A stretch of DNA of 64,000 nt from Candidatus Hermodarchaeota archaeon (lineage in GTDB: Archaea > Asgardarchaeota > Lokiarchaeia > Sigyniarchaeales > SOKP01), in the NCBI GenBank assembly GCA_048885525.1, contig JBHLLP010000008.1:47735-111734 (forward strand). The letters are read 5' to 3'. The first letter of the stretch is position 1. Every line of letters begins with the position of its first letter. Of this stretch, positions 8,936 through 39,984 are shown piece after piece. Made by a program: the position numbers and the translations under genes. The notes beneath the pieces were generated by a model, which saw nothing but the letters and a program-made list of their open reading frames with translations, did no database searches and had not been told where the DNA came from.

Positions 8936-9205
8936 CTATTCTCTCCAAACAGCTTCTTTTATTAAAGTTTGAAGACAATTTGCGCAATATCTTCCACTTT
9001 CCAATCTATTCGCCCTTCTTGAAGTCATTTGCGTTTTAACCATTTTTGAAGGTCGTAATCTAGGAATAGATTGAATTGGTCTTTTACAAATCGCACAATT
9101 TGCTCTTTTGGGTTTTCTTCTCCAATAATGAGTGACATTTCGGTTTCCTGGTGTGTTTAATTTTTTCCTTGCTTGAGCTTTGGATCTTAATCCGGGACGT
9201 GTAAT
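8936..9205 (-). CDS. rpl34e: 50S ribosomal protein eL34, non-canonical (ATT) start; absent from ORF track
   Basis: Manual translation (I)TRPGLRSK...TPGNRNVTHYWRRKPKRANCAICKRPI...RRANRLESGRYCANCL...VWRE*; canonical position upstream of cmk. Confidence 0.93.
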   Translation of the reverse strand: MTRPGLRSKAQARKKLNTPGNRNVTHYWRRKPKRANCAICKRPIQSIPRLRPSKMVKTQMTSRRANRLESGRYCANCLQTLIKEAVWRE

Positions 9206-22523: not shown

Positions 22524-22750
22524 ATCTTCACCATTTTAAAGATGTCTTATTATTCTTTATTTAATTAAAATAAAACTTTAATTATAAGTCTATTAGAGTC
22601 CAATATTTAAAAGAATTATGATGTCAGTATTCATTTCTCTTACTGTTTAATTGTTAAAAATCTGAAAATTATATGAAATTTCTAACATAAAATTAAATTT
22701 TGTAGGTAGACCTAATGATTGGATATATACTTCTTTTGAGAGATTTAACA

Positions 22751-23935
22751 CTAACCTAGAACACGTTTTGCGTAAGGAATTTTTCGAAAGATGAAATGAC
22801 TAAGGAAGAAGCAGAGAGGCACAGCAATTAGAGAAACAATGATAAATTTTACTACAGTTGGGATGGTTATTGACAAAAAGGCTACATTAAGTGCAATAAG
22901 GACTGGTTGGTGTATTATGTAAACGGTAAATACATTTGTAGCTAAATTTTTATATAAACGCCCCTGATGAGTAATTAGTTCCCGAAACATATATATTAGC
23001 CAAATTGGAATCCCTATCAAAAGAATTGATTCCCAGATGGTATATGTTAATGCTTGCCATGTAAATCCTCCTTTAAAGACGTCGTAATTTCCATTTTCCA
23101 ATGCCCCTCCTAACAATAAAATGATCGGGGCAAGAATGATCATAATAAGAGATATGATCCCCCACTTTCGGGCATGTGAATTAGATATCCGGCTAAACCA
23201 ATCCCCCCTATAAGCTAATATACCGCAGTAAAAGGAAAATATATAATGAATAATATGGGCGAATTGAATAAAAAAATACCATGTATCTACCGGGAAAAAT
23301 AGCCGAACCAAAAAGTTTAGAAATGATAGAATCCCAATAGAGAGAATTATTACCCTACTAGGAGGAAATTTATCTCGAAATATATGAATAGATTTTTGTG
23401 GAAAATATCTATCTGTAAACACTCGGAATAGCACATAAACTCCTGCAAAAATCAATAAAACCAATAAAAACCAAAGATGCCCGAAATTGAGATTAAAATT
23501 TGTATATTGGTATTGTAGGACCTCCAGGAAAGACCAACTCTCAGTACTATCTACTGCAAAATTTAGTAAGATGTAAAAGTTAATCGGTCGGATTATAATG
23601 ATTAACAGAACCAAAGGAATCCCTAAACGGATCAACCGATCTTTGAGAAATTTGAGTGACCCTTTTTCTTCATAGGATCGAGGAGTGAAATACCCTGCTA
23701 ATAGAAAGAAGGCAGACATAAAGAATGATTGATTAATAGCATTAAATAAGGTAAAGATGATGGGACTGATGGAATCAGACGCCCCTTCTCTTATTGCCCA
23801 ACCACCACTTCCACCGTATGCGATAGCAGCATGATGAACAATCACTAAAATCGTTAAAAATATACGTAATTTATCCAAGTAAAAGAGTCTTGTTTTTATA
23901 GATGGTATTTGTATTTCTTCTTGTATTTGTTTCAT
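22751..23935 (-). CDS. Acyltransferase-3 family (OpgC/MdoC-like) membrane protein
   Basis: RLFYLDKLR, VHH, FFMSAFFLLAGYF, DRLIRLGIP, HLWFL, VYIIH. Confidence 0.92.
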   Translation of the reverse strand: MKQIQEEIQIPSIKTRLFYLDKLRIFLTILVIVHHAAIAYGGSGGWAIREGASDSISPIIFTLFNAINQSFFMSAFFLLAGYFTPRSYEEKGSLKFLKDRLIRLGIPLVLLIIIIRPINFYILLNFAVDSTESWSFLEVLQYQYTNFNLNFGHLWFLLVLLIFAGVYVLFRVFTDRYFPQKSIHIFRDKFPPSRVIILSIGILSFLNFLVRLFFPVDTWYFFIQFAHIIHYIFSFYCGILAYRGDWFSRISNSHARKWGIISLIMIILAPIILLLGGALENGNYDVFKGGFTWQALTYTIWESILLIGIPIWLIYMFRELITHQGRLYKNLATNVFTVYIIHQPVLIALNVAFLSITIPTVVKFIIVSLIAVPLCFFLSHFIFRKIPYAKRVLG

Positions 23936-34106: not shown

Positions 34107-34490
34107 TTAATAGATATAACATAAAGTATGACCACCTATATGCTTCTCTTCTGCTTCACTCATTGTCATTATTCCTTGATTTGTTGTCAAAACTATTATC
34201 CCTAAACCAGGAGCAGGTAATAGGTTTCTCTCTAAGTTCTCAAATTGAGAAACTTTATAATTCAATCTCATTAATCCTGCACACTCATTAATCTTACCTA
34301 ATAAAGCTATTTTGAATTTACCTTGTCTTCCATCATCGTATCTCTCGAATTCTCCTATGTAAGCATGTCTCTGAAATATTCGAAGAATTTGTTGAATAAC
34401 TGTTGAAGCTGGACTGATTATCACTTCTTTTTTCCGTGCTCTTTCTGCATTTTTGAGAGCACAGCAAGCATCTGATACAACATTAACCAT
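34107..34490 (-). CDS. rps8: 30S ribosomal protein uS8
   Basis: LKNAE, YIGEFE..DDGR.GK, LLPA, TTNQGIM, IGG. Confidence 0.97.
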   Translation of the reverse strand: MVNVVSDACCALKNAERARKKEVIISPASTVIQQILRIFQRHAYIGEFERYDDGRQGKFKIALLGKINECAGLMRLNYKVSQFENLERNLLPAPGLGIIVLTTNQGIMTMSEAEEKHIGGHTLCYIY

Positions 34491-34527: not shown

Positions 34528-34677
34528 TTACTCAAACCTTTTAAATCCAATTTCTTTTCCTATTTCATAAAAACATCTTCTACAGATATATAATCCATAA
34601 CGCCTTATTATTCCTCTGTGAGTATGACATCTTCTGCACTCTCGCTGACCTTTACCGTAGTGTTTACCTTGTGGTAT
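34528..34677 (-). CDS. rps14: 30S ribosomal protein uS14 (Zn-finger type), non-canonical (ATA) start; absent from ORF track
   Basis: Manual translation (I)[48 protein letters not shown]; canonical position between uL5 and uS8. Confidence 0.95.
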
Positions 34678-34696
34678 CTTTTTTCACCTTAATGTA

Positions 34697-35290
34697 TTAT
34701 ATAAACTCTAAATCCAACTTTTCTACAATTTCAATTCCGAATTTTTGAGTTAAAAAATATTGGGCTTCTTCTCTGGATATATAATGATGTTTTGGAACTT
34801 TAGTGCGAGCTTTTCTTCTAAATTTTACTCTCATCCCAGGTCGTACTATTCTGCCTACACAATCTAAACCCCATATACCAATTGTATTGTCATATTCAAT
34901 ACCAGGAATAGATATATGTTCTGTTATTCCAAAACCAAAATTTCCATAATCATCAAAACTTTTTCTTAAAATTTTATTGTTATTTACAATTATTAATTTT
35001 TTAAGCAATTTTTCCCCATTTTGACCCCTAACAGTTATTTTAGTTCCAATAGGGCGTCCTTTCCTTAAATTAAATTCTTTTACATTTGTTTTTGAAAGAG
35101 TTTTAATTGCTTTTTGACCTGTTATTGTTTCTAGTACAGCAACGGCTCTCTCCAATTCCTGTCCTCCTACCCCAACACCTATATTTAATACCAACTTCTC
35201 TAAATATGGTTTTTTCATAGGATTTTTCCAATTTTCTTCATATTTTTTTGAGAGAGCATCTGGAATTTTCTTTTTTATTTTAGTAGACAT
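34697..35290 (-). CDS. rpl5: 50S ribosomal protein uL5
   Basis: NPM..P.LEKLVLNIGVG, FDDYGNFGFGI.EHI. Confidence 0.97.
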   Translation of the reverse strand: MSTKIKKKIPDALSKKYEENWKNPMKKPYLEKLVLNIGVGVGGQELERAVAVLETITGQKAIKTLSKTNVKEFNLRKGRPIGTKITVRGQNGEKLLKKLIIVNNNKILRKSFDDYGNFGFGITEHISIPGIEYDNTIGIWGLDCVGRIVRPGMRVKFRRKARTKVPKHHYISREEAQYFLTQKFGIEIVEKLDLEFI

Positions 35291-36951: not shown

Positions 36952-37304
36952 TATTCCGCACCATGTGAAATTTTTTCAAGTACAATAAACGCTTTTGTTT
37001 TAGAAATTTTACGAGATTCTCCAACTCTTACTAAATCTCCAATTTCAATTTCATGAATTAAACAACTTGGTAAATGACAAGCTAACCGCATATTACGGCG
37101 CTCATATCTTTGATACTTTTTAATGAATTGAACATAATCACGTTTAATTATAACAGTATTTCTTGTTTTTTTACTAACTATAATTCCTTGTGTAATTTTT
37201 CCTCTAATTCGTGTGTTTCCGTGATAGGGACAAGCTTGGTCTTTACAATCTTCAGCTTTAATTTTGGGAGGAATAACACCAGGAATACCAATATTTTTAC
37301 TCAT
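36951..37304 (-). CDS. rps17: 30S ribosomal protein uS17
   Basis: C.D..CPYHG, KYQRYERR, GESRKISKTK.F. Confidence 0.97.
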   Translation of the reverse strand: MSKNIGIPGVIPPKIKAEDCKDQACPYHGNTRIRGKITQGIIVSKKTRNTVIIKRDYVQFIKKYQRYERRNMRLACHLPSCLIHEIEIGDLVRVGESRKISKTKAFIVLEKISHGAE

Positions 37305-37612
37305 TTTTTTGACCTTCTCCTCTTTTTTAAACTCCTTAACCTATTTACAGGAAGTCCAACAATCTTATTCCCTTGAACTTCTAAATAATAATCATCTTTT
37401 TCATTATTCTGGTAATTTGAAATTTTAAATCTAAATATATATTCTTTTTTAACATACTTCTTTATCTTATTATCCTTTTCAGTAATTAACAGATTTCTTG
37501 TTTCATCAATTACAACGCCTATGTTTGAGAATTTTTTATCATATGACTTGCGTTTAGCATAGGTATTAAAGCCTATAAGATCATGATATATTAAATACTT
37601 TAAACTAATCAT
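37301..37612 (-). CDS. rnp1: Ribonuclease P protein subunit Rpp29/Pop4
   Basis: HDLIG, GVVIDETRNLL, G..IVG.P..RL; position between uL29 and uS17. Confidence 0.88.
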   Translation of the reverse strand: MISLKYLIYHDLIGFNTYAKRKSYDKKFSNIGVVIDETRNLLITEKDNKIKKYVKKEYIFRFKISNYQNNEKDDYYLEVQGNKIVGLPVNRLRSLKKRRRSKK

Positions 37613-37809
37613 AATTTTTCCTCCTTCATCACTGTTAGAATTCTGGCTATTTGTTTTTTTAATAATTTTGCTTTGGCTGGATTATCAGAAAGCCCTCCAC
37701 CAGTTTGCATTGAATATAACATCATTAACTCCTCTCGTAACTTAATTAGATTTCTCTCTCTTTCTCGTTCATCCATTTCTCGAACTTTTTTTGCTGTTAT
37801 AATATCCAT
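37609..37809 (-). CDS. rpl29: 50S ribosomal protein uL29
   Basis: VREMD, L..LREEL, NPAKAKLLKKQIARILTV; ATG at 37809. Confidence 0.95.
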   Translation of the reverse strand: MDIITAKKVREMDERERERNLIKLREELMMLYSMQTGGGLSDNPAKAKLLKKQIARILTVMKEEKL

Positions 37810-37837
37810 CTCATACCACAATATTGTGTTATTATTT

Positions 37838-38626
37838 TTATTTTTTCTCTGATTCCGCTTGTTCACCTTCAGTATCAGGAATCAACGAAATCTCGGAAAT
37901 TTCTTCCTCATCAACTTCATCAAGTAATTTCTTATCCTCCTCGCTTAAAACGCCTTCTTCTTCTTCGATCACATAATCTGCTCGCGTTTTCTTTAATTTT
38001 ACCTCCATTTCTGTTTGAGCTTTTGTTAAAAGATCATCCTTTATTTTGACATCATCTCCCATTTTAACATTAGCTCGCATTATTTTCACTATTACCCCTA
38101 AAACCCCAGATTTCTGTATACATTGAGCTACACCTTTATCAACTGCTGCTGCAGGTTGTCCCGATTTGGACATTGTTCCTGCTCTGAATATTTGTGTGCG
38201 AGCGCGTTGTGAAGTAACCTTCCCAGAAACGATTATCTCTACACCACGTGCCCCAGCATCCATTACTTTTCTTAATATATAATAACCCGCTCTGCGATAA
38301 TGGCGTCCTCGATCTAATGAATATGCTAATCTTTCTGCCATTATTTGAGCATCTAAATCTGGTTCAGCGACCTCTTCCACTTCAATTTGAGGCATTTCCA
38401 ATCCGAATCGGTCTTGTAGAACATCTGTAATTTCTTGAATTCTCTTTCCCCCTTTGCCAATTACTAATCCTGGACGAGAAGTTTTTAATGTGATTCTTAC
38501 CCCAAGAGGAGTACGTTGTAACTCAACGCCAGCAAATCCTGCACGAACTAACTCTGAACGTAAGTATTCATTAATTTGCATTAATTTAATACCTTGTTCA
38601 ATAAAATTTTTTACTAAAGGACTCAT
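37838..38626 (-). CDS. rps3: 30S ribosomal protein uS3 with acidic tail
   Basis: RPGLVIGKGG, GARGVEIIVSGK, GVLGVIVKIM. Confidence 0.97.
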   Translation of the reverse strand: MSPLVKNFIEQGIKLMQINEYLRSELVRAGFAGVELQRTPLGVRITLKTSRPGLVIGKGGKRIQEITDVLQDRFGLEMPQIEVEEVAEPDLDAQIMAERLAYSLDRGRHYRRAGYYILRKVMDAGARGVEIIVSGKVTSQRARTQIFRAGTMSKSGQPAAAVDKGVAQCIQKSGVLGVIVKIMRANVKMGDDVKIKDDLLTKAQTEMEVKLKKTRADYVIEEEEGVLSEEDKKLLDEVDEEEISEISLIPDTEGEQAESEKK

Positions 38627-38674
38627 TTTTTCTCAATAATCATAAATTTTAGATATCTTTTTTTATTTATTTTG

Positions 38675-39180: not shown

Positions 39181-39756
39181 TTATTTCAATGGAACATATT
39201 TAGAACTTCTTGTAGCTCCGATCCCAGGTGAACCATGTTGGACTCTTTTTCGAGTTAATGAGAATTCACCTAAATAATGACCAATCATTTCAGGTTTTAT
39301 ATCAACTACTTCAAAAATTCTCCCATTATATACTCCAATTTTTAGACCTACCATTTCAGGGAATATAATCATATCTCTTACATGTGTTCGTGTAAGCAAA
39401 TCTTTTCCTCTTTTTTTAGCCCTATAAGCCCTTCTTAATCTTTCAAGTAACTTTTTTTGTCTTGGAGGTAAACCACGTTTTAATGAACGTCGTGCTCTTG
39501 CGGGTAATAGTTGAATAAATTGATCCATGTTCATTTTCTTTAACTCCTCTAATGTATATCCTCTATATTTGAACCTTAACCGATCTAACTCTACTTCGGT
39601 GTCAATATCTCCTTCTTCTTCTAAATCTTCTTCCTTTTCCTTCTCAATATCAGTTTCTATCTCTTTCTCAGAATCTGAACCTTTTTCTAATTCACTATTC
39701 AATTCTTCCTCTAATTTTTCTGATCCTTTTTCATCAGATTGTTCATCCGGAGCCAT
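39181..39756 (-). CDS. rps19: 30S ribosomal protein uS19 with long acidic N-terminal extension
   Basis: [41 protein letters not shown]. Confidence 0.97.
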
Positions 39757-39984
39757 TTTTTAACCAATCTATTTATTCCATTTATATTATTCTTTAATTT
39801 TTTTCTTATCTAAGATATTACGGTAAGGTTTGTAGTGTTGTATTAAATTTTAACTTTTAGGTTAAGTTAGCAAAAATCATAAAACTTATAAGTGTTAGAT
39901 GTAAATTTGAAGGTATTTTCATGTATTTTAGTGTTTTGAATAAAAAAACGATTTTTGTCTACTTCCTTTAAAATTAAAAAGGAG

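Follow-up and report, generated by a model that had tools for sequence, protein, structure and literature searches.

Near-cognate AUU, AUA and AUC start codons are known in bacteria, for instance in E. coli infC (which encodes IF3) and pcnB, and ATT, ATC and ATA are listed among the starts of NCBI translation table 11. In eukaryotes, near-cognate initiation is controlled by eIF1, and eIF1 autoregulates its own production via a poor start context.

For archaea, reviews of translation initiation mention AUG, GUG and UUG alone as start codons, and describe Shine-Dalgarno (SD) motifs as rare in Lokiarchaea (PMC7531240, PMC12993045). In ribosome profiling of Haloferax volcanii, some 30% of the sites proposed as alternative starts were at codons near-cognate to AUG, and the authors set these sites aside as possible false positives (PMC7261190). 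No description of AUA, AUU or AUC (AUH) starts in Asgard archaea was found in the literature that we searched. We looked at the gene of the ribosomal protein uS14 in a Lokiarchaeial genome, and at the codons from which this gene and others of the same genome appear to be translated.

The uS14 gene and its upstream sequence

The window, by which we mean the whole stretch of 64,000 nucleotides that was analysed, belongs to a metagenome-assembled draft genome of 87 contigs. In it, uS14 lies between uL5 and uS8 in a spc-type cluster, the position characteristic of this protein family. The features of the locus are the following.

34528..34677, minus strand: uS14 (S14 type Z, zinc-binding) coding sequence, 49 codons and a TAA stop (34530-34528), with Pfam and PDB matches
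34675..34677, minus strand: ATA, probable initiation codon of uS14; the homologous codon is always start-type in 101 distinct loci of the family
34684..34690, minus strand: Shine-Dalgarno motif AAGGTGA, complementary to the 3' tail of the source genome's own 16S rRNA, GGATCACCTCCT
34697..35290, minus strand: uL5 gene, with its TAA stop (34699-34697) 19 nt upstream of the uS14 ATA and in another frame
34107..34490, minus strand: uS8 gene, ATG-led, downstream neighbour of uS14

The uS14 product matched Pfam PF00253 with an E value of 1.8e-5 and 24.8 bits, just below the 27-bit cut-off. A phmmer search of the PDB returned 61 uS14/eS29 chains (best E 3.3e-16), with archaeal S14 type Z aligning to residues 2-49 of the query. 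The zinc knuckle CxxC...CxxC is present as CRRC, followed 16 residues later by a second CRRC. The genome, which is 99.3% complete, has no second copy of the gene. Two other ribosomal proteins of the window carry acidic segments: uS19 (39181-39759, minus strand) is extended at its N-terminus by about 60 residues of acidic, low-complexity sequence, and uS3 (37838-38632, minus strand) has a long acidic C-terminal tail.

On the minus strand, AAGGTGA (34690-34684) is followed by the spacer AAAAAG, by ATA (34677-34675) and then by CCA and CAA. The TGA contained in the SD motif (34686-34684) is in frame with ATA, three codons upstream, and closes the frame, while no ATG, GTG or TTG is in frame across the 49 codons from ATA to the TAA stop. 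The GTG contained in the same motif (34687-34685) lies 10 nt ahead of ATA and is out of the uS14 frame. A preliminary description of the window had proposed ATA as the only possible start of uS14 and had placed this GTG out of frame, and both statements hold on the minus-strand sequence. It had also stated that one extra A in the spacer would bring the GTG in frame; this has to be corrected, as one fewer A (A5) or two more (A8) would be needed.

Public uS14 records for the genus are inconsistent. The NCBI annotation of one genus member gives a 49-residue protein that begins with M in place of I (M-PQGK), and this sequence (P0003) is the translation of L006/L079 except for the first residue. 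A second record (P0004) has 59 residues, with a 10-residue upstream extension.

The homologous codon in related archaea

In the genus of the source genome, all 23 genomes with a match, two of which are single-contig assemblies, have ATA, ATT or ATC (hereafter ATH) at the homologous codon behind GGTGA. This arrangement of SD and ATH across the genus is far beyond chance. A scan with one genome per species gave 80 loci, all from Promethearchaeota/Lokiarchaeia MAGs such as Loki_b32, with ATA in 28, ATT in 21, ATC in three, ATG in 24, TTG in three and GTG in one, that is, ATH behind GGTGA in 52/80. We then pooled 101 distinct uS14 loci of the family, from 13 genera, and scored the codon that precedes the conserved Pro-Gln. 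ATH was present in 58 of them (ATA 32, ATT 23, ATC 3) and a canonical start in the others (ATG 33, TTG 6, GTG 4). Since only these six start-type values occur among the 101 relatives, the codon can be read as the initiation codon. The preliminary description had called for such a comparison; it indicates that the uS14 ATA is a real near-cognate start behind a strong SD motif.

To follow the codon through the family, a tree was computed from the flanking uL5, uS14 and uS8 sequence, with the SD and start codon columns left out. On this tree the start codon changed at least 17 times, with at least six changes between ATH and a canonical start. No change to TTA, CTN, GTA or GTT was found on the tree, so this codon is unlike an ordinary Ile, Leu or Val position in a genome of 29% GC. 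The spacer between GTGA and ATH measured 6 nt in 51 of the 58 ATH-led loci and ranged from 5 to 8 nt. No canonical in-frame codon followed the upstream stop in 52 of these 58 loci, and the remaining six had an in-frame GTG or ATG inside the SD motif or 1 nt after it, from which an alternative start in those six genomes is formally conceivable.

ATH-led uS14 genes were found in the window's genus (all loci but one, which has GTG), in four further genera and in part of two others, while the remaining genera of the family have ATG, TTG or GTG. Elsewhere in the order, closed genomes of 4.3-4.4 Mb included, the other families have a longer uS14 N-terminus and an ATG start. Outside the family, the uS14 start was canonical in 39 of the 40 genomes sampled from about 22 other Asgard families. 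In the exception (locus L261 of genome G161, family f17 of the same phylum), an in-frame TGA is followed by ATT ATT as the only candidate start, behind AAGGAGATGA, and a second genome of this family (L262) starts uS14 with ATG. Judged from its sequence, the ATT of L261 may be an ATH start that arose separately from those of the Lokiarchaeial family.

We also compared the predicted strength of the uS14 SD duplex between start types. ATH starts had a mean energy of -8.5 kcal/mol, with values from -7.2 to -10.3, against means of -4.0 kcal/mol for ATG starts and -6.1 kcal/mol for GTG/TTG starts, a comparison that needs care because the relatives are not phylogenetically independent. In an independent-pairs test, the tree gave only 4-6 independent contrasts, with the expected direction in about two and the opposite in none. 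A link between SD strength and start codon type is therefore suggestive but not significant.

Runs such as A6 are prone to sequencing errors, and the genome is a metagenomic draft. We therefore considered a sequencing or assembly error: the A-run might have been miscounted, with the SD-internal GTG as the true start, or an ATG might have been miscalled as ATA. The A-run is broken in most relatives, which have AAAGAAG, AATTAAG, AAATACG or AAGAGGT. Because of this, and because the codon is always start-type in the 101 relatives, a homopolymer error is excluded. Moreover, the same arrangement is present in more than 50 independently assembled genomes, single-contig ones among them; most ATH-led relatives offer no canonical codon in frame, and the SD-internal GTG, besides the change in A number that it would need, is without an SD of its own. 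Comparison with relatives thus seems to have effectively refuted an error, to which we give a negligible probability. The same variation bears on a programmed +1 frameshift, in which ribosomes would start at the SD-internal GTG and slip on the A-run into the uS14 frame. In the source genome, the uS14 frame does follow GTG AAA AAA G at +1, and ribosomes may slip on A-runs. However, because the A-run and the spacing both vary among relatives, no slippery site or fixed frame relation is conserved, and no SD lies upstream of the GTG, so that slippage appears just as far-fetched as an error.

Termination-reinitiation deserves more attention. Here, ribosomes leaving uL5 would resume on uS14 without a genuine start check, and ATH would be a mere conserved Ile. 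The short distance from the uL5 stop speaks for it, as does the established knowledge that operon-internal genes of archaea are often translationally coupled (polycistronic mRNAs, PMC7531240). Such a mechanism does not account for a codon that takes start-type values only in 101 loci, with no Leu or Val codon besides TTG and GTG, or for the conservation of a strong SD at a fixed 6-nt spacing; the other ATH-led genes described below show the same pattern of SD and ATH. We consider reinitiation improbable as a replacement for SD-directed initiation at ATA, to which uL5-uS14 coupling may add. An alternative code in which ATA stands for Met was also rejected, because ATT and ATC are equally used as starts and ATA encodes conserved Ile positions inside uS14.

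Near-cognate starts in the rest of the genome

A second gene of the window was examined in the same way.

8936..9205, minus strand: eL34 gene, with an ATT start (9205-9203) behind AAGGTAAT (9217-9210)

The ATT of eL34 lies 7 nt after AAGGT, and the frame runs on for 54 codons before a canonical start codon is reached, as expected from the preliminary description, which had counted eL34 as a second near-cognate start. Among 30 family genomes the homologous codon was ATT, ATC, ATG or TTG only, with ATT/ATC in nine of the 11 genus genomes and ATG or TTG elsewhere. Within the 64-kb window, ATH starts were found only in uS14 and eL34. Two further genes of the uS14 cluster, uL18 and eL19, had looked start-less in a stop-to-stop listing and were rejected, as TTG and GTG starts are present.

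The whole genome was then scanned for the codon located 6 nt after GGTGA, with the TGA in frame and at least 60 open codons downstream. Because this TGA is in frame, the scanned codon cannot lie inside a gene of the same frame. Counts made without the ORF filter were dominated by sites inside genes and were uninformative. With the filter, we obtained ATT 15 times, ATA 12, ATC 5, ATG 10 and TTG 7, and every other codon at most four times, including the equally AT-rich AAA, AAT and TTA. ATH was the commonest codon class at this position, ahead of ATG. The spacing of ATH was sharp, with 9, 34 and 8 cases at 5, 6 and 7 nt, while that of ATG was broad, from 4 to 9 nt; the 6-nt spacer of uS14 falls on this genome-wide ATH optimum.

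The ATH-led ORFs include genuine genes, several of them encoding proteins whose Pfam domain begins at residue 2-6. Use of the next canonical start would cost a DJ-1/PfpI protein part of its domain, a Ras-like GTPase its P-loop, an aldehyde:ferredoxin oxidoreductase (AOR) 25 residues of its N-domain and a rubrerythrin its rubredoxin domain. The ribosomal protein uL16/L10e (contig C37 of the source genome G000, 22697-23329, plus strand; locus L154) has an ATA start behind AGGTGA. Its Pfam domain starts with residue 21 and contains the next canonical codon, 39 codons into the gene. Coding scores were computed with a broader SD definition, for 81 ATH sites that precede the first canonical codon by 12 codons or more. 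Per codon, the stretches from SD+ATH to that codon scored 0.205. The opening 20 codons of 191 SD+ATG genes reached 0.269, and the other open stretches, those with no start, 0.059. Two paralogous coiled-coil proteins, encoded at C36:29049-29759 (plus strand, L157) and C24:27750-28598 (minus strand, L158), both read I-S-I-D-W at an ATT behind GGTGA, so that the near-cognate start is retained in both copies.

Altogether, these counts suggest that ATH starts serve something like a hundred genes of this genome, or about one in three of those that are strongly SD-led (GGTGA-led). As far as sequence can tell, AUA, AUU and AUC are a regular start class for SD-led genes in this Lokiarchaeial family, combining a weak codon with a strong, precisely spaced SD. 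The relaxed start-codon selection suggested in the preliminary description fits, because ATH starts occur genome-wide behind strong SD motifs; both the comparison of relatives and the genome-wide statistics speak for it. Its link between near-cognate starts and zinc-finger ribosomal proteins did not survive: with uL16, the GTPase, DJ-1 and AOR also ATH-led, the list of genes is far wider, and the zinc-finger nature common to uS14 and eL34 is coincidental.

To locate the start-fidelity factor aIF1, we looked at the ribosomal cluster and at the rest of the genome. In the window, uL29 (37609-37881) is directly followed by rnp1 (37301-37681), which means that aIF1 is not in the ribosomal cluster and confirms its absence from between these two genes, as previously noted. 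Two genes with a SUI1 domain are present elsewhere, and both are read as ATH-led.

C32:32281-32595, minus strand (L152/L194): aIF1 copy 1, with a TAA two codons before ATT and without a canonical start
C2:79571-79888, plus strand (L153): aIF1 copy 2, in which the homologous codon is ATA, located 8 nt behind GGAGGTGA

The two paralogs are 63% identical. In copy 2, the in-frame GTGs ahead of ATA occur only inside the SD motif GGAGGTGA, and the ATT of copy 1 is invariant in 28/28 readable genomes of the genus. Other families start aIF1 with TTG or ATG, except for ATA in two genera of the neighbouring family and, probably, in one genome of another family. In relatives, the aIF1 start behaves like those of uS14 and eL34. 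Thus, by their sequence, both genes of the fidelity factor appear to use near-cognate starts.

We also looked for a dedicated initiator tRNA with a GAU or UAU anticodon. In the partial tRNA set recovered by ARAGORN and Rfam, the sole initiator-type tRNA (C32:9579-9689, plus strand) is canonical, with A1:U72, three G:C pairs (GGG/CCC) in the anticodon stem and the anticodon CAU. Its gene contains a 32-nt intron. Within this partial set, there is no sign of a dedicated initiator that would read AUH. Contig C56 carries a second 'Ile-GAU' call, probably mispredicted, and a tRNA-SeC (TCA) was predicted. ARAGORN and Rfam recovered only 24-34 tRNAs in a genome that is 99% complete, so that many tRNA genes are probably intron-rich or split.

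Proposed initiation and comparison with known systems

We are confident that uS14 is truly initiated at ATA 34677-34675; this codon would be placed by AGGUGA:16S pairing and most likely read by initiator Met-tRNA. In the mechanism that we propose, pairing of AGGUGA with the 3' tail of 16S rRNA would bring AUA, 6 nt after GGUGA, into the P site, where the ordinary initiator Met-tRNA (CAU) would most likely read it with a third-base mismatch, giving a product of 49 residues that begins with Met-Pro-Gln. With this mismatch the site would lose strength and rely more on exact spacing and on proofreading by aIF1, and it might tune the output of uS14. According to work cited in PMC6237735, aIF1 of S. 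solfataricus was reported to discriminate against non-canonical starts. We infer that the initiator tRNA decodes the uS14 AUA as Met and that ATH starts are lower or aIF1-sensitive in efficiency. A bolder proposal, which we put forward only tentatively and consider rather doubtful, is that AUH exactly 6 nt behind GGUGA forms a distinct, regulated start class in the family, with its output set by the level of aIF1; aIF1, through its invariant AUU, might then set its own level together with those of uS14, eL34 and uL16.

These starts have practical consequences. Gene finders limited to ATG, GTG and TTG miss or truncate uS14, eL34, uL16, aIF1 and something like a hundred other genes per genome in this family, and the loss affects marker-gene counts and the phylogenomics of Asgard archaea, although the NCBI pipeline rescues some of them. 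The interest of the uS14 case lies in the lineage and in the involvement of aIF1. Asgard archaea serve as the reference for how translation initiation arose in eukaryotes, and a lineage with routine AUH starts on SD-led genes, including that of the proofreading factor's gene, makes the evolution of start-codon stringency directly testable.

Like bacterial infC and pcnB, uS14 combines a third-position mismatch with CAU, an SD-led site and conservation of the weak codon. The likeness to infC extends to the fidelity factor, whose own gene, here that of aIF1, appears to be ATH-led. The two situations differ in extent, as near-cognate starts concern a handful of genes in E. coli and a sizeable share of the SD-led genes here, several ribosomal proteins included. 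They also differ in the factor, which is IF3 in E. coli and the eIF1-like aIF1 here, and autoregulation of aIF1 is a conjecture. Eukaryotic eIF1 is a homologous factor (SUI1 fold), and there too the gene of the fidelity factor is associated with a weak start, a resemblance only: the eukaryotic system relies on scanning and Kozak context, has no SD, and its near-cognate codons are mostly CUG, GUG, UUG and ACG.

Initiation in P. abyssi and S. solfataricus has in common with the source genome the pairing of the SD with the anti-SD in the 16S tail (GGAUCACCUCCU), an initiator tRNA of this type, and aIF1 (PMC6237735, PMC7531240). The AUA, AUU and AUC starts found here are absent from the accounts of archaeal initiation in PMC7531240 and PMC12993045. 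As in Haloferax volcanii (PMC7261190), archaeal ribosomes can initiate on near-cognate codons, but the Haloferax sites are alternative or novel ones, whereas uS14 and other core genes described here would have no other start than the conserved near-cognate one.
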